A stretch of DNA of 64,000 bases from NCBI GenBank assembly GCA_958295815.1, contig OY282374.1, forward strand, positions 3,684,682-3,748,681. The letters run 5' to 3'. Positions 3,953-56,767 of this stretch are shown here, in pieces (position 1 is the first letter of the stretch; the number at the start of each line of letters is the position of its first letter). The DNA is from Candidatus Poribacteria bacterium. GTDB lineage: Bacteria > Poribacteria > WGA-4E > WGA-3G. Under the pieces are notes generated by a model. That model was not told the DNA's origin. It searched no databases and saw nothing but the letters and a program-made list of their open reading frames with translations. The translations under genes and the position numbers were made by a program.

Positions 3953-6250
3953 ATGCATTTCACTAAAAAACAACACATATTTACTTACACACTCATGCTT
4001 TGTGCTTTGCTTCTCCTGATTCCACTGAGCACATTGGCACAGACCGTTAACATTCCAGACAACAACCTTCGAGAGGCAATTAATGAGACACTTGGCAAGG
4101 AACCAAATGCTCAGATTACGATGGATGAAATGCTCAGGTTAACTCACTTTGAGGCGAATTTCGTCAATATTCGCAACCTGCGAGGACTGGAAGCCGCTAC
4201 GAATCTGGAAGTTTTACGAATGGATGGTAACCAGATATCCAACCTATCACCGCTCGCTGGGTTGGTTAAACTCCGTCGTATTGACTTAGAAGAAAACGCT
4301 ATATCCGACTTATCACCCCTCGCTGGAGTAATTAGTTTAGAGCGTTTGAATATCTCTCATAACGCGGTTTCTGATATATCACCCCTCGCCGAACTAACGA
4401 ACTTAAGGGGTTTTGCATTCCATCATAACGTGATAACGGATCTATCGCCGCTGGCAAATTTGCCAAAACTGGAATGGATTGGGATGAGTGATAACCCATT
4501 CGTTGACCTCGAACCTTTAGCAGAGACCACCAGCCTTACCGGTGTCCACGGTTGGGGGACACCCGTCCTAAACATCGGCGCACTTGGTAACTTACCCAAA
4601 ATGCGGGAGATCAATATCTGCGGTGGCGATATCTCCGATCTCTCCGGACTTGAGAACTTAAAAAGTCTAAAGACCCTTTATCTGCCCGGGAACCAAGTTT
4701 CAGACCTTTCACCCATAGAAAATTTAACAGGAATAACACGCATCAACCTTGAAGGGAATAGGGTTTCCGACGTATCACCACTCGCATCACTAAGCAACCT
4801 AACTTGGATAGACCTACGCCGCAATACAGTCTCCGACGTTTCTCCCCTTGCTGAACTCAACAGTTTGACATGGCTTGACCTTACCCAAAATTCCGTCTCG
4901 GACGTATCCGATCTTGCATTTTTACCGAACTTGAATTGGTTAGGACTCACAGACAATACGCTCACAGACCCAACGACTTTAGAAAGATTTTCTGAGGGGA
5001 CAGCGATCACATATTCCGATTTCGTCAACTCCGCCTTGCCTGAAGGAGGTCCGAAAATAGAGGGACCTTGGTTATGGGCAATCGTGCCGAATGCAGGATT
5101 CGGTACAAAAGATTTGTTAGCGATAGCGAGCAATGGTGCTGCCACCGAAGTAAAAGTTGCCACATTTGGAGCCACCGAAGATAAGGTGATCGGGAGTGGT
5201 AAGTGGCGCGCACACTTGCTCTCCGCCACAGGTGGAGATAACCTTAATCAGATGACAGACGCACTCGGATGGGGGTCGGGTTCCGAAATATACGAGCATG
5301 TTGTTTATGGTTCCGTTACCTTAGAGTCCCCGCGTAGACAGGAAACAACAATGCTTGTCGGCAGCGATGATGAGGTAAAGGTCTGGCTTAATGGTGAAGT
5401 GGTTCACTACAATTCTGTGATCCGAGGTGCTGGTGATTATCGGGATGCCTTTCCTGTTACATTGAAGAAGGGAACAAATGTTTTATTAGTAGCCGTTAGC
5501 AATCTCGGACATGGTGCATTTAGCGGTTTTTTTGGTTTCGCTCAGGACGCAGAATATACCGTCAACGCTCCAGGTGACCCAATCGTCATAGAAATTTCCC
5601 CTTCGGATATTAACAGAGATGGAATCATAAACATCTTGGATCTGATTCTCGTAGCACGGGACTTAGGCAATACCGAATCTGACAACGCACGCACGGATGT
5701 CAATGCTGATGGAAAGCGAAACATATTGGATCTCAATCTTGTGGCTCGACATATAAACAAAGCTTCGAGTACTGCCGCTCCCGCTGCCTTGGCAACATCG
5801 GATGTGTTTATAACTGCCGGAGGAGTTTCTAACCCCGAAATTTCTCCAGATATGATACGCACATGGATAGCATGGGCGCAGCTTGAGAGCGACGGTTCGC
5901 TTATCTTCCAACAAGGCATCGCGAATCTTAAACGGCTCTTAGCATCTCTGATTCCTGAAAGAACAGCGTTGCTCGCCAACTACCCGAACCCATTCAATCC
6001 GGAGACATGGATACCCTATCAACTCGCAGAACCGACTGCAGTTACATTGCATATCTATGCGGTAAGTGGGGCATTGGTTCGGACATTGGAGTTAGGACAT
6101 CAATCCGCAGGACGCTATCAAGACAGAAGTCGTGCAGCATATTGGGATGGGAAAAACGAGGTCGGTGAATCTGTCGCGAGCGGTATATATTTCTATACCC
6201 TCACCGCAGGAAACTTCACAGGTACTGGCAAAATGCTCATAAGGAAGTAG
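3953..6250 (+). CDS. Secreted leucine-rich-repeat protein with a lectin-like middle domain, a dockerin-type double repeat and a T9SS/FlgD-Ig-like C-terminal sorting domain
   Basis: Signal peptide, then ~13 LRRs of the 'ISDLSPLAGL..L..L.L..N' type. A ~170-aa domain is shared with the next gene (GGPKIEGPWLW…VWLNGEVV…GFFGFAQDAEYTV). The dockerin is 'DINRDGIINILDLILV…DVNADGKRNILDLNLV'. The C-terminus reads 'NYPNPFNPETWIPYQL…IYAVSGALVRTL…WDGKNEVGE.VASGIYFY.L…KMLIRK'. Confidence 0.8.
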   Translation: MHFTKKQHIFTYTLMLCALLLLIPLSTLAQTVNIPDNNLREAINETLGKEPNAQITMDEMLRLTHFEANFVNIRNLRGLEAATNLEVLRMDGNQISNLSPLAGLVKLRRIDLEENAISDLSPLAGVISLERLNISHNAVSDISPLAELTNLRGFAFHHNVITDLSPLANLPKLEWIGMSDNPFVDLEPLAETTSLTGVHGWGTPVLNIGALGNLPKMREINICGGDISDLSGLENLKSLKTLYLPGNQVSDLSPIENLTGITRINLEGNRVSDVSPLASLSNLTWIDLRRNTVSDVSPLAELNSLTWLDLTQNSVSDVSDLAFLPNLNWLGLTDNTLTDPTTLERFSEGTAITYSDFVNSALPEGGPKIEGPWLWAIVPNAGFGTKDLLAIASNGAATEVKVATFGATEDKVIGSGKWRAHLLSATGGDNLNQMTDALGWGSGSEIYEHVVYGSVTLESPRRQETTMLVGSDDEVKVWLNGEVVHYNSVIRGAGDYRDAFPVTLKKGTNVLLVAVSNLGHGAFSGFFGFAQDAEYTVNAPGDPIVIEISPSDINRDGIINILDLILVARDLGNTESDNARTDVNADGKRNILDLNLVARHINKASSTAAPAALATSDVFITAGGVSNPEISPDMIRTWIAWAQLESDGSLIFQQGIANLKRLLASLIPERTALLANYPNPFNPETWIPYQLAEPTAVTLHIYAVSGALVRTLELGHQSAGRYQDRSRAAYWDGKNEVGESVASGIYFYTLTAGNFTGTGKMLIRK

Positions 6251-6425
6251 AAATAAACTGCATCCAAGAAAATGGAACGCTGCCTTGGTAGGCAAGGTTT
6301 CCCAACTTTCCCGGTACACTCTGTTGGGCGAGGTCCCCGTGCCTCGCCTTCTCCGCACCTTCTATAGTGTATGGGTAAATCTAAAATCTACTATGGTGCC
6401 TCTGTCTATTGGTTATTAAAGGAAA

Positions 6426-17283: not shown

Positions 17284-18612
17284 ATGATACTCGAAAAATT
17301 ATTTGAGTTAAAAAAGACTGGCACCTCGGTGAGACGTGAACTGGTCGCAGGTTTTACGAACTTTATGACAATTTCATATATAATCTTCGTTCAGCCTGCC
17401 TTGCTCTCAATAGCCGGTATGGATTCTGGTGCTGTCATGGTTGCGACCTGTGTATCCAGTGCAATCGCAACGTTTTTTATGGCGTTTCTAACCAATTATC
17501 CGGTCGTGTTAGCACCTGGTATGGGACTTAACGCCTATTTTGTTTTCGATGTTTGTCAAGGTGCTGGCTTACCATGGCAGCAGGCATTGGGCATCGTTTT
17601 CATATCAGGCATGTTATTCTTCATACTTTCATTCGTCGGAATCCGTGAAGCCGTCATGAATGCCATCCCACACTCACTCCAGAATGCTATCGCTATCGGG
17701 ATTGGCCTCTTTATTGCCTTTATCGGTCTGCAGATGAGCGGAGTAATTATAAGTCATCCGGCGACATACATAACCCGCGGGGATCTCTTATCAACCCCTG
17801 TTTTACTCTCTCTATTCGGTATTGCTGTAACTCTCGCACTCATGGCGCGCAAAGTCAAAGGCGCAATTCTAATTGGTATCCTTGTTGCAGCTGTCGCCAA
17901 CCTCGTCTTTGGGATTGCCAAATACGAGGGCATCGCCGCACCGCCGCCTTCTATCTCACCAACGCTCTTCAAACTGGAAATTCCGAATATCTTCGCCAAA
18001 CTGGAACTGATTTCTGTAATCTTCGTCTTCTTTTCCATTGACATGTTCGATAGCATTGGCACGCTTACGGCTATCGGTTACAGAGCGGAGTTGCTTGAAG
18101 AAGGGAAACTCGCAAAAGCAAGGAGAGCACTTATTACAGATGCTGGGGGCACTGTTGGTGGTGCTTTGCTCGGTACCTCAACCGTTACATGTTACATTGA
18201 AAGCGCGACCGGGATTACTGTTGGTGGCAGGACGGGACTTACCGCTGTCTTCACGGGAATTTTTATGTTGCTATCCCTCGTCTTCTATCCACTCGTTAAA
18301 ATAGTTGGGGGTGGTTATGCGATTAGCCAAACCACCACACTTTACCCGATTATCGCCCCCGCACTCATCGTCGTCGGCGGATTGATGCTCAGAAATCTCA
18401 GCCAGATTGACTGGGAAGACCTCACAGAATCCGTCCCTGCGTTTCTGACAATGATAATGATGCCACTCTCCTTCAGCATAACAGACGGCATTGGCTTCGG
18501 ACTTATCTCCTTAGCATTTCTCAAGTTAGTAACTGGACGTGGAAAAGAAGTAAATCCGATCGTCTACTACTTTGCCCTTTTCTTCATCGCCTGCTACATC
18601 GGAGACCTATAG
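17284..18612 (+). CDS. NCS2-family purine permease, AzgA/PbuG-like (adenine/guanine/hypoxanthine)
   Basis: 'MILEKLFELKKTGTSVRRELVAGFTNFMTISYIIFVQPALLS' is the typical AzgA N-terminus. There are ~12 TM segments, and an SD 'aaggaggg' precedes the ATG at 17284. Confidence 0.85.
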   Translation: MILEKLFELKKTGTSVRRELVAGFTNFMTISYIIFVQPALLSIAGMDSGAVMVATCVSSAIATFFMAFLTNYPVVLAPGMGLNAYFVFDVCQGAGLPWQQALGIVFISGMLFFILSFVGIREAVMNAIPHSLQNAIAIGIGLFIAFIGLQMSGVIISHPATYITRGDLLSTPVLLSLFGIAVTLALMARKVKGAILIGILVAAVANLVFGIAKYEGIAAPPPSISPTLFKLEIPNIFAKLELISVIFVFFSIDMFDSIGTLTAIGYRAELLEEGKLAKARRALITDAGGTVGGALLGTSTVTCYIESATGITVGGRTGLTAVFTGIFMLLSLVFYPLVKIVGGGYAISQTTTLYPIIAPALIVVGGLMLRNLSQIDWEDLTESVPAFLTMIMMPLSFSITDGIGFGLISLAFLKLVTGRGKEVNPIVYYFALFFIACYIGDL

Positions 18613-18636
18613 AGAAGACGACCCCCAAATAGAAAA

Positions 18637-18658
18637 GGTGCGGTTCCCCAACCGCACC
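18637..18658. terminator. Perfect hairpin ggtgcggtt-cccc-aaccgcacc, 25 nt after the permease stop
   Basis: A 9-bp inverted repeat seen directly in the sequence. It has the GGTT…AACC architecture shared with the other hairpins in the window. There is no strong U-tract, so it may not be an intrinsic terminator. Confidence 0.45.
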
Positions 18659-18674
18659 ATATCTCATAAATCGT

Positions 18675-18938
18675 GGGAGGGGTTTCTAACCCCGATGTGC
18701 TTCTGAAAGCTTACTATCTCCGCTGAGAAGTTTTCCAATCTCGTCAATCATAAGGTCTATAGGTAATCATAGGCTTTACTATAATTATCCACAGAAGTGA
18801 TTTCCGAACTGTATCGATCCATAGCCCCAGCGGGGCGATATGTGTATAGCAGCATAGATTCTTCCGCTGATCCAGCCCCAGCGGGGCGGCATGTGTATAA
18901 CGTACTAACTGCTCTTTGTAGGAGGGGTTTGTAACCCC
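18675..18938. repeat. Cluster of short intergenic repeats: a hairpin (gggaggggtttctaaccccg), 2 copies of a ~30-bp unit 'agccccagcggggcg[at/gc]atgtgtata', and a copy of the 'ctgctctttgtaggaggggtttgtaaccccgac' element
   Basis: The ~30-bp copies lie at 18823-18852 and 18875-18903. The element at 18905-18938 recurs at 52355-52391. Confidence 0.8.
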
Positions 18939-18981
18939 GACGCTTTACAAGTGTTCATGTAATTAGACTTTATCAAGAACT

Positions 18982-19335
18982 ATGGAAACCACTAATTTGA
19001 AACAACGCTTGGCACAAGGCGAAAATACCGACACTGAATTCAAAGAGAACTTCGATCAGGAGGCTATTGAGACCAAAATCATCTTTGACTCACCGATTCA
19101 AGAGACAACTTTTGTTGAAATTGATGACATTTCAGAGCAGTTAAACGGACGTCAAAAGAACGCTTTTTCCTATGCACAAAGACGTGGAGAAATCTCGAAA
19201 AGAGAATATATGGAAATCAATCATGTGTCACATCGGATTGCCTACACCTAATTAAGGGATATGACGGATAAAGGGTTATTGTCTATGGTAGGGAAGGGGA
19301 GGTCAACTAAGTACGTACGAAAAATAACTGATTAG
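18982..19335 (+). pseudogene. Remnant of an AlbA_2 / HATPase_c_4-type (Schlafen-like, 'RecG-like helicase-domain') transcriptional regulator: first ~25 aa of the AlbA_2 domain joined to the C-terminal wHTH, with an in-frame TAA
   Basis: The N-terminus 'LKQRLAQGENTDTEFKENF' matches the 'GE.etlEFK' start of divergent-AAA/AlbA_2 domains. The C-terminus 'ISKREYMEINHVSHRIAYT*LRDMTDKGLLSMVGKGRSTKYV' matches the conserved wHTH (…TNKEY.ELTGVS.RTA.RDL..LVEKGLL.RVGKGRST.Y). The stop at 19252-19254 is in the same frame. The central ~350 aa are missing. Confidence 0.6.
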
Positions 19336-19470
19336 GTAACTGATTAATTGGGCGATTACGCACCGAATGTATCTGTAATCCACAGTGAAGCGTTATGTCT
19401 GTAATCGGAAGGAAGCAAGGTTGATTAATTAAGCGATTGGTAAACAATTCTCGTAAGGAGTTTGTCCTAC

Positions 19471-20775
19471 ATGCCAGATAAAAACATCTCAGGCATCACC
19501 AAGATAGCTGTAAAAGGCTTCAAGTCCATAGCGGAGGAGCGTGAAATCGACATCCGTCCACTGACGATCCTTGCCGGTGCGAACAGTTCCGGGAAATCCA
19601 GTATCATGCAACCGCTATTGATGTTAAAACAGACGTTGGAGGCACCCTACGATCCAGGACCGCTATTAATTGATGGACCGAACGTTCGGTTTACTTCGAT
19701 AACCCAATTTTTGTCCATGTTACCTGACAAAAAGGAAATAGACTGTTTTCAGGTTCGGATTGAAATTCATGTGCCTGATTCTTATCGCTCGGTTACCACG
19801 ACTTTCAGAAAAGGTATAAATCGGATTGAACTTATCGAAATGACAGCAAAAGAGAGGGTAAGAAACAACCATACTTTATCTCCGGAATGTTTGACCTTGT
19901 ATCCTGAGATGGAATCTGAAGAAATTAAATCAGCAATTGAAGGACTCTCAATTCCCAAAAATCTTGAGACAGTAAAGCGTTTCCGATGTTTTTTAGTTCT
20001 TGGATTCAAAGATGGTTATACGATTTTCACCGTTACCCCTGATTTTGAGTCCAATATTCTTAACAGCATCCATCTCCCCGGTTTACGCGGAAACCCAGAA
20101 CGCATATACAAACTCACTAGCACTGGACCACTGTATCCGGGTACGTTTGAAAACTATGTTGCGAGTATCGTCCACGAGTGGCAGGAGACGAAAGACGGAC
20201 GCCTAAAAATGGTAGGCGATGCCCTTCACACGCTTGGACTGACAGGACAGGTCCGCGCTAACAAAATCAATGATGCCAATATTGAACTTCAAGTTGGTCG
20301 CCTCCCTCACGACAGAACCAACGACATGGATATGGTCAATATCGCTGATGTAGGTTTTGGTGTATCCCAAGTCCTTCCTGTTTTGGTTGCTGTGATTGTC
20401 GCAGAGCCGGGGCAGCTGGTCTATCTTGAACAACCCGAACTGCACCTCCATCCGCGCGCGCAAGTCGCATTAGCACGAGTCCTTGCAGACGCTGCAAAAC
20501 GAGGGGTGCGTGTTGTCACTGAAACACACAGTTCATTACTGCTTTTGGGGATTCAAACGCTTGTTGCCGAAGGAGACCTCACCCCAGAGTTAGTGAAACT
20601 CCACTGGTTCACACGACGTGAAAATGGTGTAACTGAAGTTACCAGTGCTAATTTAGACGAGGCAGGAACTTACGGGGATTGGCCCGAAGATTTTGCAGAT
20701 GTCAGTCTCAATGAACAAAGTCGTTATCTTGATGCCGTTGATAACGTAAAGTTTGGTAACACGGAGGCTTCGTGA
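19471..20775 (+). CDS. Soluble ABC-type ATPase of the AAA_21/DUF3696-like class (no transmembrane domain)
   Basis: Walker A 'LTILAGANSSGKSS', a degenerate signature 'VGFGVSQVLP', Walker B 'QLVYLEQPELHLHP', and H-loop 'VVTETHSSLLL'. An SD 'aaggag' lies 10 nt upstream of the ATG at 19471. It is translationally coupled to the next gene (GTGA overlap). Confidence 0.8.
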   Translation: MPDKNISGITKIAVKGFKSIAEEREIDIRPLTILAGANSSGKSSIMQPLLMLKQTLEAPYDPGPLLIDGPNVRFTSITQFLSMLPDKKEIDCFQVRIEIHVPDSYRSVTTTFRKGINRIELIEMTAKERVRNNHTLSPECLTLYPEMESEEIKSAIEGLSIPKNLETVKRFRCFLVLGFKDGYTIFTVTPDFESNILNSIHLPGLRGNPERIYKLTSTGPLYPGTFENYVASIVHEWQETKDGRLKMVGDALHTLGLTGQVRANKINDANIELQVGRLPHDRTNDMDMVNIADVGFGVSQVLPVLVAVIVAEPGQLVYLEQPELHLHPRAQVALARVLADAAKRGVRVVTETHSSLLLLGIQTLVAEGDLTPELVKLHWFTRRENGVTEVTSANLDEAGTYGDWPEDFADVSLNEQSRYLDAVDNVKFGNTEAS

Positions 20776-21305
20776 GAGATAGAAATTCAAAACGATTGGT
20801 GATTGACACTGATGTTGTCCAATCGTCAGGTGATGAAGAAGCAACCGATCCACGAGCCGTTCATTGTCGTGATTTCCTAAAGGAAGTGAGGTCTCAGAAT
20901 CATAGGGTGGTAATGACAAGAAAAATCAGTGATGAATGGAAAAGACATCAATCTCGCTTTTCCCTTGAATGGAGAGTGTCGATGGATGCTCGCAGAAGAG
21001 TGGATCGCGTTGATCCACCGGAAAATGAAAAACTGCGAGACAAGATCGTTGATACAACAAGCAATCAAGATGAGATCGCGGCACTGCAAAAAGATTTTCA
21101 TCTTCTCCAAGCTGCATTGGCAACCGATCAGACGATCATTTCGCTTGATGAAATCATCCGAAAACTTTTTGCACGTGTTTCCCAACAGGTTGGAGAAATT
21201 AGGCATGTTATCTGGGTGAATCCTGATCGAACTACAGAAGAGCAACCGATCACTTGGCTCCAAAGCGGCGCACCGCCTGAAACACACCGCCAACTTTCTG
21301 CTTAA
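20772..21305 (+). CDS. Small PIN-like (possibly TOPRIM-like) putative nuclease partner of the ATPase
   Basis: The GTG start overlaps the upstream TGA. 'KRLVIDTDVVQS' resembles PIN motif I (hhhDTshhh), and 'LQAALATDQTIISLDEIIRKLF' resembles the PIN C-terminal 'A.A…LhTxD..f' motif. There are no HNH or Cys motifs. Confidence 0.5.
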   Translation: MRDRNSKRLVIDTDVVQSSGDEEATDPRAVHCRDFLKEVRSQNHRVVMTRKISDEWKRHQSRFSLEWRVSMDARRRVDRVDPPENEKLRDKIVDTTSNQDEIAALQKDFHLLQAALATDQTIISLDEIIRKLFARVSQQVGEIRHVIWVNPDRTTEEQPITWLQSGAPPETHRQLSA

Positions 21306-21484
21306 TCTTATATTCATTGGATTCTATATAACTGCCACTCCAATGGAACTAAAGAACCTCAATTGAATAAGACTCTTAAAATCCGCGTCATCTGTGTAAT
21401 CCGCGTCATCCGCAATTCAGACAATTAACACTGTGTCTGACTGGCCAACGAAGTTAAACCTCTTACCGCCGACCGTCGACTGCT

Positions 21485-21531
21485 ATAATCCTGCAAATCC
21501 TTGAATCCTGTAAATCCGCAATTCAGACAAT
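21485..21531. repeat. ~46-bp repeat 'ataatcctgcaaatcctt[g/t]aatcctgtaaatcc…ttcagacaat'. Second copy at 22645-22690; related 'tccgcaattcagacaat' at 21412-21428
   Basis: The direct repeat is ~90% identical. The two copies flank the 21531-22403 gene, and the second copy lies ~110 bp upstream of the 22801 gene. Confidence 0.75.
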
Positions 21532-22403
21532 CATCCCTGCCAACCCAAATTAATACTCGTATATCCGTCCGTATATTGATGCAAATGTTGCGGCAAATCC
21601 GCTAAGAACTGCCTACCCTCTTCTGGAATCTCCCACGGAATATCAATATGATGCTCCCGGCTCCTAAAACCGACAGCACACGACAACCGGATCTCATCAG
21701 CCTGATTTGGGAATGCACCATGATACGTTCTGTGTGCGAACACAATCATATCCCCAGGATTTGTGAACAGCGGCACTAACCCCGGAATATCAAACCCTAC
21801 ATAACCCTTTTCTTCTTCGCCCTCTTTGTAAAAAGAGCGTTTGTCCGCCGTCAGGTTGAAACCTTCCGGTCCCTCCCAGTTTTCCACATGCGAACCTTCA
21901 ATCACACAGAGTCCGCCATGTTCAGGACGCGAACCCGTCAAGTAGAACCATTTACCTGAAGGCCAAAGACCACGGTTCAGTACATCGCCTGAGTTCTTAG
22001 GTGTATCTGTTGAAAACCCGCACCAGTCGGTATGCCAAGCAACCGGTTGAGAGCCAGGCATCCGAATGATAGCAGCAGACCGATGGAGGGTCAAATCCTC
22101 TGCCCCAATCAGATGGTGGTGTGTTTTCATAAAGGGTTCGTATTCCAGAAGCTGCCAAGCACCCGGTCCAGACTCAATCCAAGCATGTCGAGTCTGGCTC
22201 TGCCCAGGCTTTAATTCCCTTTTCGGATCAGTGCCATCAAAAACCGCCTGTTTTGAAACTTCGACTAACTCAGGAGGCAAAACATCTTTGATAATCGCGA
22301 AGCCGTGTGCCTCCAGACATTCCGACATGAGAGAGAGCTGATCAATCCCAAACTCGTAAGTATAGCCAAGTTCAGGTTTCTGAATCTCCAAATATTCTTT
22401 CAT
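21531..22403 (-). CDS. Phytanoyl-CoA dioxygenase (PhyH) family 2OG-Fe(II) oxygenase
   Basis: 'AWHTDW…' His/Asp facial-triad context, '…IVFAHRTYHGAFPN…', and PhyH-like length. Confidence 0.75.
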   Translation of the reverse strand: MKEYLEIQKPELGYTYEFGIDQLSLMSECLEAHGFAIIKDVLPPELVEVSKQAVFDGTDPKRELKPGQSQTRHAWIESGPGAWQLLEYEPFMKTHHHLIGAEDLTLHRSAAIIRMPGSQPVAWHTDWCGFSTDTPKNSGDVLNRGLWPSGKWFYLTGSRPEHGGLCVIEGSHVENWEGPEGFNLTADKRSFYKEGEEEKGYVGFDIPGLVPLFTNPGDMIVFAHRTYHGAFPNQADEIRLSCAVGFRSREHHIDIPWEIPEEGRQFLADLPQHLHQYTDGYTSINLGWQG

Positions 22404-22800
22404 AAGTCAGTCCCCAAATTCTTCGTCCCTTGGTAGGCGAGGTTTCCTAACCTCGCTGGTTTCGCACTGTATCAGAAAATGTAAAATCCACTATAGCTGT
22501 TTACTCTGAACCCAGAGTGATATAATTTTAGCAGTTAGTCACCATTGGGTCAACGACATTTTTCGGAAGGATTCAATGCCGTCAATGAAGTTGAAAAAAT
22601 ATTCGCTACTTTTATAAAGGACAAGTATCAATCAAAAACAGACCATAATCCTGCAAATCCTTTAATCCTGTAAATCCTGGTTCAGACAATATCTTGTCAA
22701 ACTTATCTATCAATAGCTGTCGAGAATCCGTTATACTCTTGCACTAATTACCAATTTTTGTTAAAATATCACGACTATAGCACAATTCGGAGGAAAATAA

Positions 22801-23702
22801 TGGCACAAACCGTCTTGTTAGGAGAACACGAACTCACCTTCCCCGGTCCACACCTCGGTGTACTTCGGGACTGCAACGCCGTACTTGATTCAGCTGAAGG
22901 TTTACACCAACAGATAGCGGAGGACGGGTACCTCCTCGTTCGCGGGTTAATAGATAGAGAAAAGGTAATCGCGGGACGCCGAGCGATCCTTGAATATGCC
23001 GATGGAGAGGGAAGAGACGACGTTTTCAAGCCCGGTACCGATATCATGGACGCATTCGCCGGTGACGGAAGACCTGGACGGACAATGGGAACACCCGCAG
23101 TTACGCATCATCCGGATGTCCAGTCAGTTTTGGAGGGCGATGAACTTTTCAAATTCTTCCGAACCTTTTTCAGTGGCGATACCCGAACCTTCGATTACAA
23201 ATGGCTTCGGTTTATCCGACCCACCGTCTGGTCGGGACCCCATTTCGATTTCGTCTATATGGGACGCGGATCAGAGCAACTGCATACCTGTTGGATCCCG
23301 TTCGGTGATGTGCCAGCAACAATGGGAACACTGACGGTGCTGGTCGGTTCGCACAACCTCCCAAATTTCGCACCGATTCGGGACACCTACGGCAAAACAG
23401 ATGTAGACAGGGACGGCACACCTGGACATTTCGGAAACGATCCCATGGAGATTAGCGATAAATATGGGGGTGAGTGGAAAACTGCCGATTTCCAGATGGG
23501 GGATGTCATTGTCTTCACAATGCACACGATGCACACCTCTACAAAAAATCTTTCCGATCGGTGGCGTATCAGTTGTGACATCCGGTTCCAACCCGCAGCA
23601 GACCCAATTGACGAACGATGGGTCGGCAAAAACCCAATTTCTCACACAGGCAGCCAAAAAATTTCATTTGAGGAAGCAAAAGAGCAGTGGGGACTGGAAT
23701 AG
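22801..23702 (+). CDS. Phytanoyl-CoA dioxygenase (PhyH) family protein / ectoine-hydroxylase-like
   Basis: An SD 'ggagg' precedes the ATG at 22801. 'HFDFVYMGRG…' and 'VFTMHTMHTS…ISCDIRF' are PhyH-family motifs. Confidence 0.7.
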
Positions 23703-23955
23703 AGATGCTCAAATCCTTCCGATTACTGTGCCGTTAGGATATTGCACCCTAAGTGTCACTTTAGATCATATGGAATCAACCCGAATGTCCGTCCAACATT
23801 CATTGGGGTTGAATCCAGCGAAATCGTACTTCACTGGAAGCATCTTGAGTCCCAGCGGGTTTATTTGCTTGGGTATTTCTTCAATAGGTGTATAGAAATA
23901 CCGGTTCAGAGGGACACCGAGCCCCAGCGGGGCGACAGGTGTTGTATAAATAGTT

Positions 23956-25131
23956 TTAACCGAATAATGCCCGCCGAATCTGACGGACCGCTTGACGAAT
24001 CCGATCCTCGTTCTCCACAAGCGCAATTCGGATATATCCTTCACCGTTGTGCCCAAATCCAGCACCTGGAGATACACAGACTTCCGCCTCGTTAAGGAGT
24101 TTCATAGCAAAGTCCATAGAGGAGAGATGCTGCCACGCTTCAGGGATTGGTGCCCAGACGAACATAGAAGCCTGTGGTTTCGGCACCTTCCATCCAATCC
24201 GATTTAACCCTTCAACCAGAACATTACGACGTTTTTGATAAACCGCAGCGTTCTCCATCACTGTGTCTAATGGTGTGCGTAGTGCCATAATCGCTGCGAC
24301 CTGAATTGGTGCAAAAATCCCGTAATCGTAATACCCTTTAATCCGAGCAAGTGCTTCAATAATCTCACGATTCCCCGCTGCAAACCCACACCGCCATCCC
24401 GCCATATTATAGGATTTAGACAGAGAGATAAATTCGATGCCAATATCCTTCGCACCTTTTGCCTGTAGAAAACTCGGTGCCTTGTAGCCATCAAAAACGA
24501 TGTCCGCATAAGCCAAATCATGGATCACCACGATCTCCTGTCGTTTCGCAAACGCCACGATCTCCTCGAAGAAGCCAAGGTCAACGACAGCACCCGTTGG
24601 ATTGTGTGGGAAACTTAGAATTAGCACCTTTGGTCTCGGCCAAATATCACGTGTGATTTCAGTCAGTGAAGGGATGAAATCGTTCTCTTCTGTAAGCGGT
24701 ATACTCACAACGCTTCCACCGGCAAGCACAATGCTGTACATATGGATTGGGAATGTCGGATTCGGCACCATTGCCAAATCACCGTTATCAATTAAGGCTA
24801 ACGCCAGATGTCCCAGCCCCTCTTTAGTGCCAATAACAGAAATGGCTTCTTCATCCGGGTCGATATGAACGTCGAACCGGCGCTCATAGTGCCAACTGAC
24901 TTCCCTACGGAGGTTATAAATGCCGCGCGAAGCGGAATAACGGTGATTCCGAAGTTCTTGTGCCGCTTCACTCAACTTATCAATGATAGGTTGTGGGGTT
25001 GGTTGATTCGGATTCCCCATCCCCAAATCGATAATATCTATCCCCAATTGCCGGCGTTCGTGTGTTAATTGTTTGAGTTTGCCGAACATATACGGCGGAA
25101 GTCGATTTAAGCGTTTTGAAAAGATATTCAT
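23956..25131 (-). CDS. PLP-dependent class I aminotransferase (alanine/aspartate aminotransferase-like)
   Basis: 'SLSKSYNMAGWRCGF' carries the PLP-binding Lys motif. 'GMGNPNQPTP' and the length are typical of AlaA/AspC-type enzymes. Confidence 0.85.
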   Translation of the reverse strand: MNIFSKRLNRLPPYMFGKLKQLTHERRQLGIDIIDLGMGNPNQPTPQPIIDKLSEAAQELRNHRYSASRGIYNLRREVSWHYERRFDVHIDPDEEAISVIGTKEGLGHLALALIDNGDLAMVPNPTFPIHMYSIVLAGGSVVSIPLTEENDFIPSLTEITRDIWPRPKVLILSFPHNPTGAVVDLGFFEEIVAFAKRQEIVVIHDLAYADIVFDGYKAPSFLQAKGAKDIGIEFISLSKSYNMAGWRCGFAAGNREIIEALARIKGYYDYGIFAPIQVAAIMALRTPLDTVMENAAVYQKRRNVLVEGLNRIGWKVPKPQASMFVWAPIPEAWQHLSSMDFAMKLLNEAEVCVSPGAGFGHNGEGYIRIALVENEDRIRQAVRQIRRALFG

Positions 25132-52299: not shown

Positions 52300-52391
52300 G
52301 GGATCTGCTCTTTGTAAGGGATCTGCTCTTTGTAGGGGATCTGCTCTTTGTAGGGGATCTGCTCTTTGTAGGAGGGGTTTGTAACCCCGAC
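52300..52391. repeat. 18-bp tandem repeat 'gggatctgctctttgta[a/g]' x4, followed by hairpin ggggtttgtaacccc
   Basis: Copies at 52300-52317, 52318-52335, 52336-52353 and 52354-52371. The last copy merges into the 'ctgctctttgtaggaggggtttgtaaccccgac' element that also occurs at 18905-18938. Confidence 0.85.
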
Positions 52392-52629
52392 TCTTATAAG
52401 TGTCCAAGTCATTCTAAAATCTACCAATGTTACATTGCTGCTCTATTGAAACGTCTATTTCTACATTTCTCCAAGCGTATTGGTAAATCTAAAGTCTGCT
52501 ATAAGTACTCCTAAATTCGCAGCGGAATTTAGTGCTTCTGTAGGAGAGAACTTCAGCTCGCGACTTCCTCGGAAAATCCATGAAAATAGTGAAAACTCAA
52601 TGCTACTATAAATGTCGTGTGGTGTCTTT

Positions 52630-55833: not shown

Positions 55834-56640
55834 ATGAACACGCTTACACAGAATTTTGCGCAAACGATTAAATCGACATTATCCAGGCGAAAAAAATTTC
55901 ACAAACCGGGATTTCGTGAGTACGCAAAGCAAGTTATTTTCATTGCGATACTCGTCTACGGTTTCATAAATCCATTTATCGTTCAAGCCTATAGAATTCC
56001 CTCCGGATCTATGGAAGATACTCTCCTTGTCGGCGATAAAATTTGGGTATGTAAATTTATCTACGGCGTCAAGATTCCTGGCACAGATATAAAAATACTC
56101 GACTTTCATGAGCCAGCTCGTGGTGATGTTTTCGTTTTCGTTCCACCGCATGATCGGGAACGAAATTACATTAAGCGAATTGTTGCAGTTGAAGGCGATA
56201 CGATCTATACTCAGGGAAAAACTCTCTATGTAAATGGCAAAGCCGTTGACGGTAATAGCTATACGAAGCATCTGTCATTCAGCCATTTTAGGAGGGATTT
56301 TCCACCATTTCGGACACCTGAATATATCCCGACTGCAGACAGTTATGACGATTATACCTTGACAGAAAGCCAGTTTAGTCGTAAGTTTCCTGAAGGCAAA
56401 CCGTTCACTGTTCCGAAAGGTACGGTCTTCGCGATGGGCGATAACAGGGACCAAAGTAGCGATAGCCGCTTCTGGGGACCGGTGGCTGTAGACGATATTA
56501 AGGGACAGGCTTTTATGATCTGGTGGTCGGTTGCGGATCGTCCCGTAAAGCCTTGGGAAATATGGAAAATGGTCGGCAATATTAGGTTTAATCGAATCGG
56601 TAAACTCATCCGATCAGAACCAGATTCGTTTTCGGGATAG
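55834..56640 (+). CDS. lepB: Signal peptidase I
   Basis: 'IPSGSMEDTLLVGDKIWV' (catalytic Ser), 'YIKRIVAVEGD' (Lys), and 'GDNRDQSSDSRFWG'. The start is taken at MNTLTQ to avoid overlapping lepA. Confidence 0.88.
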   Translation: MNTLTQNFAQTIKSTLSRRKKFHKPGFREYAKQVIFIAILVYGFINPFIVQAYRIPSGSMEDTLLVGDKIWVCKFIYGVKIPGTDIKILDFHEPARGDVFVFVPPHDRERNYIKRIVAVEGDTIYTQGKTLYVNGKAVDGNSYTKHLSFSHFRRDFPPFRTPEYIPTADSYDDYTLTESQFSRKFPEGKPFTVPKGTVFAMGDNRDQSSDSRFWGPVAVDDIKGQAFMIWWSVADRPVKPWEIWKMVGNIRFNRIGKLIRSEPDSFSG

Positions 56641-56767
56641 ACTGTAATTCGCTACGTCTCCATTGGATAACTGAGACCTCATACAGCTAAATTTTATGCG
56701 CTTTAACACCCAGATAAATCGAGGAAAAAGGAGAATGCCCTCTTACTGACACTGGCTCTATGATATT

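Follow-up and report, generated by a model that had tools for sequence, protein, structure and literature searches.

The region at 18.6–21.5 kb of the window, a 64-kb stretch of a Candidatus Poribacteria chromosome, is accessory DNA at a variable chromosomal site. Taken as a whole it is probably best explained as a long-resident accessory cassette at a Poribacteria defence hotspot, with an ATPase-PIN defence operon as its working part. Poribacteria are uncultivated sponge symbionts, and to our knowledge what is understood of their phage defence is almost wholly sequence-derived. The cassette occupies the spacer between a convergent permease gene (+ strand) and PhyH gene (- strand), and its operon encodes an ABC ATPase of the NsnB/HEC-03 class, whose C-terminal tail is DUF3696-like, and a translationally coupled VapC-like PIN-domain protein. 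Judged by sequence, this pair is a divergent, previously undescribed relative of a known type of defence system (HEC-03/Menshen-like), and its role is predicted on that basis. The features of the region are collected in Table 1. The hairpins, repeats and elements listed in a preliminary description of this DNA are all present, at or a few bases from the positions given there, and the gene content is as it claimed, with permease and PhyH flanks and an AAA_15/AAA_21 ATPase, a PIN-like protein and a pseudogene inside.

Table 1. Features of the cassette region and its borders (window coordinates).
Feature	Position	Strand	Details
Bidirectional terminator hairpin	18637..18658	.	Perfect 9-bp stem, 4-nt loop, GGTGCGGTT-CCCC-AACCGCACC
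GGGGTT-TCT-AACCCC hairpin	18673..18695 (hairpin proper 18679-18693)	+	Member of a Poribacteria-wide interspersed hairpin family
Two 26-nt direct repeats, AGCCCCAGCGGGGCGryATGTGTATA	18823..18899 (18823-18848, 18874-18899)	+	92% identical
CTGCTCTTTGTAG unit followed by GGGGTTTGTAACCCC hairpin	18909..18945	+	Second copy of the 52359-52395 element
Pseudogene, remnant of a ~470-aa SLFN_AlbA_2 + HATPase_c_4 + wHTH protein	18982..19335	+	Identified by comparison with intact relatives
ABC-type ATPase, AAA_15/AAA_21 class, DUF3696-like tail (NsnB/HEC-03 class)	19471..20775	+	434 aa, intact
VapC-like PIN-domain protein	20772..21305	+	177 aa; GTGA start/stop overlap with the ATPase gene
Flank element A, AATCCGCGTCATC x2 then ATTCAGACAAT	21380..21427	+	AATCCGCGTCATC at 21380 and 21398
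~106-bp segment with second element AATCCTGCAAATCC..AATCCTGTAAATCC..ATTCAGACAAT	21428..21531	+	18-bp direct repeat at both bounds

The site lies between a xanthine/uracil-family permease gene on one side and two PhyH genes on the other. When the synteny of 38 Candidatus Poribacteria loci was compared by tblastn, the site was empty in nine, with only 78–297 bp between the permease and PhyH1, and the closest relative (L001) has an empty site. The ATPase-PIN pair was found at the same position in 12 of the 38 loci, and occupies it in both deep Poribacteria clades. At least six loci hold alternative cargo, consisting of an HKD-SNF2 helicase, a type IIG methylase-like gene (matching PDLC03628, E = 0) and an RNAP-alpha-CTD protein, while IS3, IS630, IS1595 and TnpB genes were found at the same site in others. 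The site is a defence island or hotspot, holding different defence genes, mobile genes or nothing in related genomes. The reading of accessory content at a variable site in the preliminary description is thereby supported, and the synteny comparison it called for shows permease and PhyH adjoining in relatives that lack the insert. A search of the island for leftovers of the HKD-SNF2 and type IIG genes found none.

The ATPase matches Pfam AAA_21 (9e-23) and AAA_15 (1e-21), and scores 19.9 bits on DUF3696, just short of the cut-off of 22. Its best PADLOC match is NsnB (3.9e-55, profile positions 2-337 of 345), followed by the HEC-03 ATPase PDLC04148 (4.2e-40, chiefly over the C-terminal half) and PDC-M55A (1.9e-38), with weaker matches to the AriA and GajA models (1e-24 to 1e-10). 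Conserved motifs include GANSSGKSS, DVGFGVSQ, LVYLEQPELHLHP, ETHS and LVYLEQPE. The Walker B dyad is EQ rather than DE, and the ATPase may therefore bind ATP instead of hydrolysing it. Residues 76-204 are hypervariable, with 21–54% identity compared to more than 90% in the motifs, and we count this in favour of defence as a putative arms-race signature in a sensor-like insert. The AF2 model of the ATPase was poor (mean pLDDT 50.7), and the variable region is therefore called Insert-1 from motif order alone.

The PIN protein consists of a PIN domain and a conserved C-terminal tail of ~40 residues (WVNPD...WL..GA), with no C-terminal effector domain detected within its 177 residues; just one of five AF2 models was confident. 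It is VapC-like in having both the PIN fold and the acidic residues D12, E55, D108 and D119, which are conserved over a PIN family of 2163 clusters (50% identity), with N replacing D12 in the alleles of L008 and L016. The family is lacking from Pfam, NCBIfam and PADLOC models, and the protein gave zero matches to PADLOC models at E <= 1 and none by tblastn against plasmid and phage collections. Exact-sequence look-ups of four window proteins returned zero records, though identical PIN and ATPase sequences exist on an NCBI/ENA contig.

Linkage of the two genes is strict. An ATPase homologue lies directly upstream of the PIN gene in all 79 testable metagenomic and IMG/VR loci, the same order is found in Kamptonema, KSB1 and another contig (ATPases 55–56% identical to that of the window), and an overlapping [G/T]TGA start and Shine-Dalgarno site are conserved across the pair. 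The family is seen in Poribacteria, Cyanobacteria, KSB1 and many metagenomes. Outside Poribacteria its neighbours are mostly housekeeping genes, and KwaB (2) and Uma2 (2) are the only conflict-plausible genes among 81 neighbour ORFs; a PHROGs scan of the neighbours on three IMG/VR contigs matched only families of unknown function.

Upstream of the pair, and only in Poribacteria, there may be a SLFN_AlbA_2-HATPase_c_4-wHTH gene, intact and full-length in L008, L015, L019, L021, L026 and L049. The window copy is a pseudogene that has lost ~1026-1029 bp in frame, with 6-8 bp of microhomology at the junction (19067-19074), and carries TAA at 19249 in place of a Glu codon. A functional tie to the ATPase-PIN pair was considered, but none of the 83 non-Poribacteria loci has the gene and half of the Poribacteria sites that hold the pair lack it too, and we therefore treat it as optional.

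The closest architectural parallel is HEC-03 (Hma-embedded candidate 3; Payne et al.) of Pseudomonas cichorii (WP_025259138.1 and WP_025259137.1), a DUF3696 ABC ATPase with a VapC-like PIN, in which both genes are needed for phage defence in E. coli (bioRxiv 10.1101/2024.01.29.577857). It is the sole tested system of ATPase-PIN architecture, and is toxic on IPTG induction (bioRxiv 10.1101/2024.01.29.577857). The window pair has the same layout, a DUF3696-type ATPase (~460 aa in HEC-03) whose gene overlaps that of a small VapC-like PIN downstream of it (157 aa in HEC-03, 177 aa here), and the two ATPases are 26% identical over their full length (E = 6e-24), with G-NSSGKSS, LKQT, DVGFGVSQVLP, EQPE-HLHP and E-HS in common. 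The resemblance at the level of sequence models is however confined to the ATPase: the PIN sequences are without detectable similarity, and comparison of the family profile with the HEC-03 PIN by hhalign was not significant (probability 4.7%). Furthermore, the window ATPase scores higher on the Menshen NsnB model than on the HEC-03 model, and while HEC-03 derives from Hma systems of Gammaproteobacteria, the window family occurs in other phyla, in Poribacteria with the optional AlbA_2-wHTH gene upstream.

Menshen comprises NsnA, NsnB and NsnC (Millman 2022; Li et al. 2025, PMC12065111), and a clamp formed by the tails of NsnB around the PIN-like domain of NsnC has been predicted (PMC12065111). 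The window ATPase, like NsnB, is an ABC ATPase with a DUF3696-like tail, a GxG motif standing in for SGG and a Walker B dyad that departs from the canonical one (EQ in the window, EN in NsnB; PMC12065111), and each has a PIN-fold protein as its downstream partner. In NsnC, however, the PIN domain is inactive and joined to a nuclease at its C-terminal end, whereas the window PIN keeps the catalytic acidic residues and is without an effector nuclease. No NsnA (ParB-DUF262 + ParBDB) is found at the window locus; in Poribacteria the upstream gene is SLFN_AlbA_2/HATPase_c_4/wHTH or absent. Neither NsnA nor DUF262 was found in the Kamptonema, KSB1 and other-contig relatives or, for 81 neighbour ORFs at 22 loci, within the 25 most frequent Pfam families. 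More distant parallels are PARIS (AriA/AriB), Septu (PtuA/PtuB) and Gabija (GajA/GajB), in which an oligomer of an OLD/ABC-type ATPase holds or regulates a nuclease effector that is set free or switched on in response to a phage cue (PMC12065111). These resemble the window pair in joining an ATPase to a nuclease effector, but their effectors are Toprim or HNH rather than PIN, and their ATPases are of other families, without the DUF3696 tail.

The repeats on either side of the genes are of several kinds. The hairpin at 18637-18658 has a folding energy of -16.1 kcal/mol (z = -6.0 relative to shuffled sequences), is followed by a T-run on the minus strand, and occurs in 8 of the 38 Poribacteria loci, including the empty sites of L005 and L006; it is the terminator shared by the convergent permease and PhyH genes, part of the conserved flank and outside the island. 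The GGGGTT-TCT-AACCCC hairpin does not exceed shuffled sequences in stability (z = -0.9), and further members of its family lie at 5816, 10209, 18918 and 52368 of the window. GGGGTTnnnAACCCC hairpins are found throughout Poribacteria, and 707 kb of Poribacteria loci contain 26 copies of GGGGTTNNNAACCCC, compared to a single copy in 632 kb of other bacteria; observed counts exceed shuffle means for GGGGTTNNNAACCCC (5 vs 0.13), AGCCCCAGCGGGGCG (4 vs 0.12) and AATCCTGYAAATCC (5 vs 1.18). The 26-nt repeats have further copies at 23920 and 33139, all four on the + strand, and are absent from the 38 related loci, being seen in the present genome only. The 18909-18945 element is 97% identical to its other copy, with similarity extending over 56 bp at 89%, and its 18-bp unit is tandemly repeated at 52300-52371 (family D10). 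On the distal side, element A is the counterpart of sequence abutting the PhyH1 stop codon in other genomes, aligning at 80–91% to the sequence directly before PhyH1 in L010, L012, L021, L030, L031 and L049, and ATTCAGACAAT adjoins the PhyH1 stop also at the empty sites of L011, L020 and L032. The ~106-bp segment is bounded by the 18-bp direct repeat ATCCGCAATTCAGACAAT (21408 and 21514); the 47-bp element within it (21485-21531) recurs at 22645-22690 with 89% identity, and is also found at other positions in L001, L006, L013 and L022. Zero Rfam matches (E <= 1) were obtained over 17.0–24.5 kb, and the repeats are therefore not known RNA families.

These observations bear on the earlier proposal of a compact accessory island delimited by repeat clusters, of which the accessory cargo at a variable site stands and the repeats as borders do not, being ubiquitous rather than island-specific. 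Were the region a recently acquired genomic island, brought in by site-specific recombination with the repeat clusters as attachment sites or borders, one could point to the presence/absence polymorphism, the repeats on both sides and a mildly low GC content (44.2% compared to 46.9%). Yet the repeats also stand at empty sites and genome-wide, and the tetranucleotide composition of the region is native (L1 distance 0.194, where equal-sized windows average 0.182 with an sd of 0.020 and 25% of them are at least as deviant), two results that the preliminary description had named beforehand as refuting such an island. None of the hallmarks of an integrative island or mobile element was seen: there is no integrase or transposase among the genes of 18613-21530, no tRNA near the cassette (the only one in the window is at 59.5 kb), and a search for bracketing direct or inverted repeats, attachment-site or target-site duplications and terminal inverted repeats found none. 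Moreover, 12 species from both deep clades carry the cassette at this one site. The C-terminal half of the PIN protein diverges in step with the genes on either side (Mantel rho 0.61, p = 0.0015), from which it follows that the cassette has long resided here and did not arrive recently. A recent island, largely refuted by the missing integrase and attachment sites, the composition, the same-site occurrence and the repeats at empty sites, is in our view highly improbable.

Another reading is a vertically inherited housekeeping module for RNA processing or repair, lost by some lineages, with site variability incidental, and the occurrence of the pair across both major clades, the native composition and the synteny kept in two cyanobacterial contigs (between a glycosyltransferase and rpsB-tsf in both) are in its favour. 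The pair is however missing from at least nine related species, the closest one included, and restriction-like systems replace it in sister species. The phylogeny is also mosaic, in that the ATPase diverges independently of the host flanks (Mantel rho 0.02) and its tree disagrees with the host tree; with the hypervariable insert, and with defence ATPases as the nearest relatives of the ATPase, this makes a housekeeping role improbable. Somewhat less so, but still unlikely, is a toxin-antitoxin or addiction module with no phage role, in which the PIN protein would be a VapC-type toxin and the ATPase a neutralising partner that stabilises the locus. The VapC-like fold and acidic residues, the tight coupling of the operon, the scatter of the module among housekeeping genes in other phyla and the toxicity of induced HEC-03 all agree with this, whereas type II VapBC systems differ in having neither a large ABC ATPase upstream nor the extra C-terminal tail on the PIN protein. 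No VapB-like small antitoxin gene lies directly upstream of the PIN gene, its place being taken by a 434-aa-type ATPase in every locus examined; HEC-03, of the same architecture, protects against phages and needs both genes, and the sensor-like insert and the hotspot shared with restriction-modification-like systems favour defence. Toxin-antitoxin and defence roles are not mutually exclusive.

In the defence operon we favour, the C-terminal tails of ATPase oligomers would keep the PIN protein inactive, by analogy with HEC-03, Menshen, PARIS and Septu. A phage cue would be sensed by the hypervariable insert, and ATP binding or hydrolysis would then release or activate the PIN RNase, which may cut tRNA, rRNA or mRNA and so abort the infection. 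An anti-phage role, a complex of ATPase and PIN and an RNA target for the window pair are thus suggested by analogy. The cassette itself is not self-mobile: its presence, absence and allele exchange may all be attributed to homologous recombination via the conserved flanks and to deletion, and the repeats beside it are generic intergenic ones.

A broader proposal, which we put forward tentatively and hold to be rather less than even in likelihood, is that the pair represents a large unnamed family of minimal anti-phage systems bridging HEC-03 and Menshen. An NsnB-type ATPase would here work directly with a catalytically active PIN effector, from which the inactive PIN adaptor of Menshen NsnC might descend; the hypervariable insert would be a phage sensor diversified by recombination inside a fixed chromosomal hotspot, and the SLFN_AlbA_2-wHTH gene a lineage-specific, dispensable third component in Poribacteria. 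For annotation, the Poribacteria-wide intergenic repeats (GGGGTTnnnAACCCC hairpins and AATCC...TTCAGACAAT elements) are not to be taken for island borders, and defence-finding tools half recognise the ATPase-PIN family, matching the ATPase and missing the PIN protein, so that adding it to PADLOC or DefenseFinder would improve the annotation of environmental genomes. For Poribacteria, the locus is a fixed hotspot between two convergent housekeeping-type genes at which defence cargo appears to swap, decay and recombine without mobile-element machinery.

The window is part of a Candidatus Poribacteria chromosome; its exact PIN and ATPase proteins are present on one 5.13-Mb NCBI/ENA contig, and its permease shares 90% identity with that of MAG OX638316.1. 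The cassette of interest, comprising a pseudogene, an ATPase gene and a PIN gene, lies between the permease and PhyH1 genes.

Features of the cassette, its surroundings and its variable neighbour sites (window coordinates unless a related locus is named)
Feature	Position	Strand	Remark
Der GTPase	14801-16225	+	
2-hydroxyacid dehydrogenase	16237-17211	+	
Xanthine/uracil-family permease	17248-18612	+	
Hairpin	18637-18658		perfect 9-bp stem, z = -6.0 vs shuffles
GGGGTT-TCT-AACCCC hairpin	18679-18693		
Two 26-nt direct repeats	start 18823 and 18874		
AGCCCCAGCGGGGCG(A/G)(C/T)A(T/G)GTGT repeat	18823, 18874, 23920, 33139	+	4 copies
Element	18909-18945		second copy 52359-52395, 97% identity
89-aa ORF (pseudogene part)	18982-19251	+	
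AAA_15/AAA_21 ATPase	19471-20775	+	
177-aa PIN-like protein	20772-21305	+	
AATCCGCGTCATC			2 copies
47-bp element	21485-21531		second copy 22645-22690
PhyH1	21531-22403	-	
PhyH2	22758-23702	+	
Aminotransferase	23956-25131	-	
Three-gene cargo set (RNAP alpha-CTD protein, HKD(PLD)-SNF2 helicase, type IIG methylase-like)	L023 11634-19346		
PhyH1-PhyH2 variable spot	L005 12620-14517		also L011, L013, L045, L012

To assess synteny, 38 related Poribacteria loci with 10-kb flanks were searched by tblastn with the window proteins, and the site was found in four states: empty, ATPase plus PIN, other cargo, or contig ends. Permease and PhyH1 are directly adjacent, 78–297 bp apart, in 9 loci, among them the closest relative (L001), and the ATPase and PIN genes occupy the same site in 12. 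Using ORF calls and family scans, we identified the other cargo as an HKD(PLD)-SNF2 helicase (~1130 aa), a type IIG restriction-modification methylase-like protein (~1079 aa; PADLOC PDLC03628, E = 0) and a 254-aa protein bearing the C-terminal domain of RNA-polymerase alpha; the three form a set in L009, L014, L018, L023, L024 and L029 and persist as fragments in L012 and L026. IS3, IS630 and IS1595 transposases and a TnpB gene are also found at the site in relatives. When the flanking proteins are placed on a neighbour-joining tree, both deep clades include carriers of the cassette and empty sites are scattered over several separate lineages. The site has therefore long been a variable defence hotspot, in which the cassette is an old resident that has been repeatedly lost or replaced. 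The preliminary description of an accessory island at a hotspot is thus borne out by the synteny.

The association of an RNA-polymerase alpha-CTD protein with a restriction-like system is unusual. Two further variable spots lie nearby, the window itself carrying the cargo of neither. The PhyH1-PhyH2 gap can hold a gene for a 403-aa lipoprotein-like product, in some cases accompanied by a second gene of ~215 aa, and the PhyH2-aminotransferase gap holds a ~370-aa gene in L019, L020, L045 and L049, the product of which looks Fic-like, by eye, at its N-terminus.

Recent insertion of the island is a reading left unsupported by its composition. The tetranucleotide distance of the island to the window profile is 0.194, compared to a mean of 0.182 (sd 0.020) for equal-sized windows, 25% of which are as deviant or more. 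The GC content of 44.2% (46.9% for the window) does place the island within the lowest 4.5% of windows, in part because of its high non-coding share. While PhyH1 closely follows flank divergence (Spearman rho 0.90), the ATPase does not, either as a whole (Spearman rho 0.002) or when divided into core (Mantel rho 0.02) and insert (Mantel rho 0.07); the PIN N-terminal half gives a Mantel rho of 0.33 (p = 0.057) and the C-terminal half, beside PhyH1, 0.61 (p = 0.0015). These differing correlations indicate that the cassette is a mosaic, the right end of which is inherited with the flank and the ATPase of which is exchanged among lineages, a pattern that fits homologous recombination inside a fixed locus.

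All the repeats and hairpins listed in the preliminary description were found in the sequence, and the repeat motifs are commoner in the window than in its shuffles, but the proposal that they delimit the island fails, since the permease-proximal hairpin and ATTCAGACAAT also occur at empty sites, GGGGTTNNNAACCCC is found Poribacteria-wide and no pair brackets the cassette. The hairpin nearest the permease, with a T-run on the minus strand, is also found in L005 and L006, two loci with an empty site, and is a bidirectional terminator of the convergent permease/PhyH pair. In L011, L020 and L032, where the site is empty, the ATTCAGACAAT terminus lies directly against the PhyH1 stop codon. GGGGTTNNNAACCCC has five copies in the window (at 5.8, 10.2, 18.7, 18.9 and 52.4 kb), with 26 copies in 707 kb of Poribacteria loci against 1 in 632 kb from other bacteria. 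The AGCCCCAGCGGGGCG repeats, with copies at 23.9 and 33.1 kb as well, are not island-specific; as none of the 38 related Poribacteria loci contains a copy, this is a family seen only in this genome. A search for direct or inverted repeats bracketing the cassette found none, neither a tRNA nor a recombinase gene lies near it, and an Rfam search of the region recognised no family.

At the distal end, element A (21380-21427) aligns with sequence directly before PhyH1 in 6 other occupied genomes. The extra ~106 bp that follow (21428-21531), beside the PhyH1 stop, look like a local duplication or an inserted small interspersed element: within 21408-21539, two exact 18-bp copies of ATCCGCAATTCAGACAAT, in direct orientation, flank 88 bp that carry a further copy from the AATCC...TTCAGACAAT element family. 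Elsewhere in the window, 3–4 tandem copies of an 18-bp unit, GGGATCTGCTCTTTGTAG, at 52300-52395 run straight into a GGGGTTTGTAACCCC hairpin, whereas the element copy at 18909-18945 has only one such unit. Another ~30-nt repeat (..TGTAAAATCTACYAT..), at 6366, 12445, 22466, 52399 and 52474, often follows closely on a hairpin of the GCGAGGTTTCCTAACCTCGC type, as it does upstream of PhyH1 (22428-22498); this may be a motif associated with promoters or else a composite element of intergenic regions. Paralogous repeats at 5890-6189 and 10301-10600 (78% identity over 300 nt) lie inside leucine-rich-repeat-like genes, and two paralogs at 55948-57524 are arranged in tandem (76–80% identical).

L008, L015, L019, L021, L026 and L049 have an intact gene, seen there as matches to the 89-aa ORF interrupted by ~1 kb; its ~470-aa product combines SLFN_AlbA_2 and HATPase_c_4 with a winged helix at the C-terminus. 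DNA alignment places the window lesion at 19067-19074, with ~1026–1029 bp lost in frame at a junction of 6–8 bp microhomology, and at 19249 a stop codon (TAA) stands in place of one for Glu. The gene is wholly missing from L010, L012, L016, L022, L030 and L031 and from all 83 non-Poribacteria loci; it is an optional, lineage-specific neighbour, the window copy of which is in mid-decay. The gap between pseudogene and ATPase (19341-19438) contains the two copies, TGATTAATTGGGCGATT and TGATTAATTAAGCGATT, of a 17-nt direct repeat at a distance of 81 bp, as well as two TGTAATC(C/G) motifs; these sequences could have served as operators bound by the lost wHTH protein, or they could belong to the ATPase promoter.

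The ATPase matches Pfam AAA_21 and AAA_15, with DUF3696 below threshold, and among PADLOC models NsnB of the Menshen system (3.9e-55, nearly the whole profile covered), the HEC-03 ATPase (4.2e-40) and PDC-M55A (1.9e-38); the sole match among PDB sequences is OLD nuclease (8e-5). Conserved motifs include GANSSGKSS, DVGFGVSQ, LVYLEQPELHLHP and ETHS, and the GxG signature and non-canonical Walker B dyad agree with the description of NsnB (PMC12065111). Across 13 Poribacteria orthologs, residues 76–204 are only 21–54% identical, compared to >90% in the motif regions. This stretch is probably Insert-1 of the ABC fold, an assignment we infer from motif order because the AF2 model (pLDDT 50.7) is too poor to use.

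The PIN protein matches no Pfam family at threshold (PIN_12 scores 18 bits) and no NCBIfam or PADLOC model; its family numbers 2163 clusters at 50% identity (E <= 1e-3). All of 58 diverse members carry D108, and conservation of D12, E55 and D119 reaches 90% or more, within a local pattern, hhhD-x-S/D ... EW..H ... KDxHLxEAAL.TD..h.SLD, that is the classic PIN catalytic one; a conserved ~40-aa tail (WVNPD...WL..GA) follows the domain. A divergent PIN allele in L008 (13535-14092) and L016 (12910-13440), only 55–56% identical to the window PIN, has Asn for the first catalytic Asp, D12, and is possibly an inactive variant; its occurrence in two distantly related host lineages suggests allele exchange.

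The two genes are tightly linked. In most Poribacteria loci the PIN start overlaps the ATPase stop ([G/T]TGA), preceded by a GGAG Shine-Dalgarno, and in Kamptonema formosum, a KSB1 MAG and another contig a 448–462-aa ATPase, 55–56% identical to that of the window, lies directly upstream of the PIN gene. Wherever scanned metagenomic and IMG/VR contigs extended far enough upstream to tell, the ATPase immediately preceded the PIN gene (79/79 loci). When 81 ORFs neighbouring the module at 22 loci were compared with Pfam, no conserved third gene emerged: most have housekeeping functions, KwaB and Uma2 each appear twice, no family exceeds 3 ORFs, and DUF262 is outside the 25 commonest. Three IMG/VR contigs with the module (L087, L088 and L089) are classed as viral, L088 and L089 sharing neighbours of the function-unknown families phrog_11123 and phrog_7312.

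This architecture is identical to that of HEC-03 from P. cichorii, a DUF3696 ABC ATPase with a VapC-like PIN, both genes of which are needed for defence in E. coli (bioRxiv 10.1101/2024.01.29.577857). The ATPases are 26% identical (E = 6e-24), but the PIN proteins have no detectable similarity. Menshen, the NsnB of which is the best match to the window ATPase, is defined by NsnA (ParB-DUF262) and by NsnC, an inactive PIN fused to a nuclease (PMC12065111); we looked for both in the window system and found neither. Given the HEC-03 architecture and the lack of these Menshen components, the most fitting place for the locus is in the ABC-ATPase plus PIN defence class, as a new and divergent member related to HEC-03 and Menshen. 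By analogy with NsnB4-NsnC2, PARIS and Septu, ATPase oligomers would grip the PIN protein by C-terminal tails and the hypervariable ATPase insert would sense infection, a change in nucleotide state then releasing or activating the putative PIN RNase, so that RNA cleavage would abort the infection. A defence hotspot is in itself ordinary biology; the cargo of this one is a large family only half recognised by current tools.
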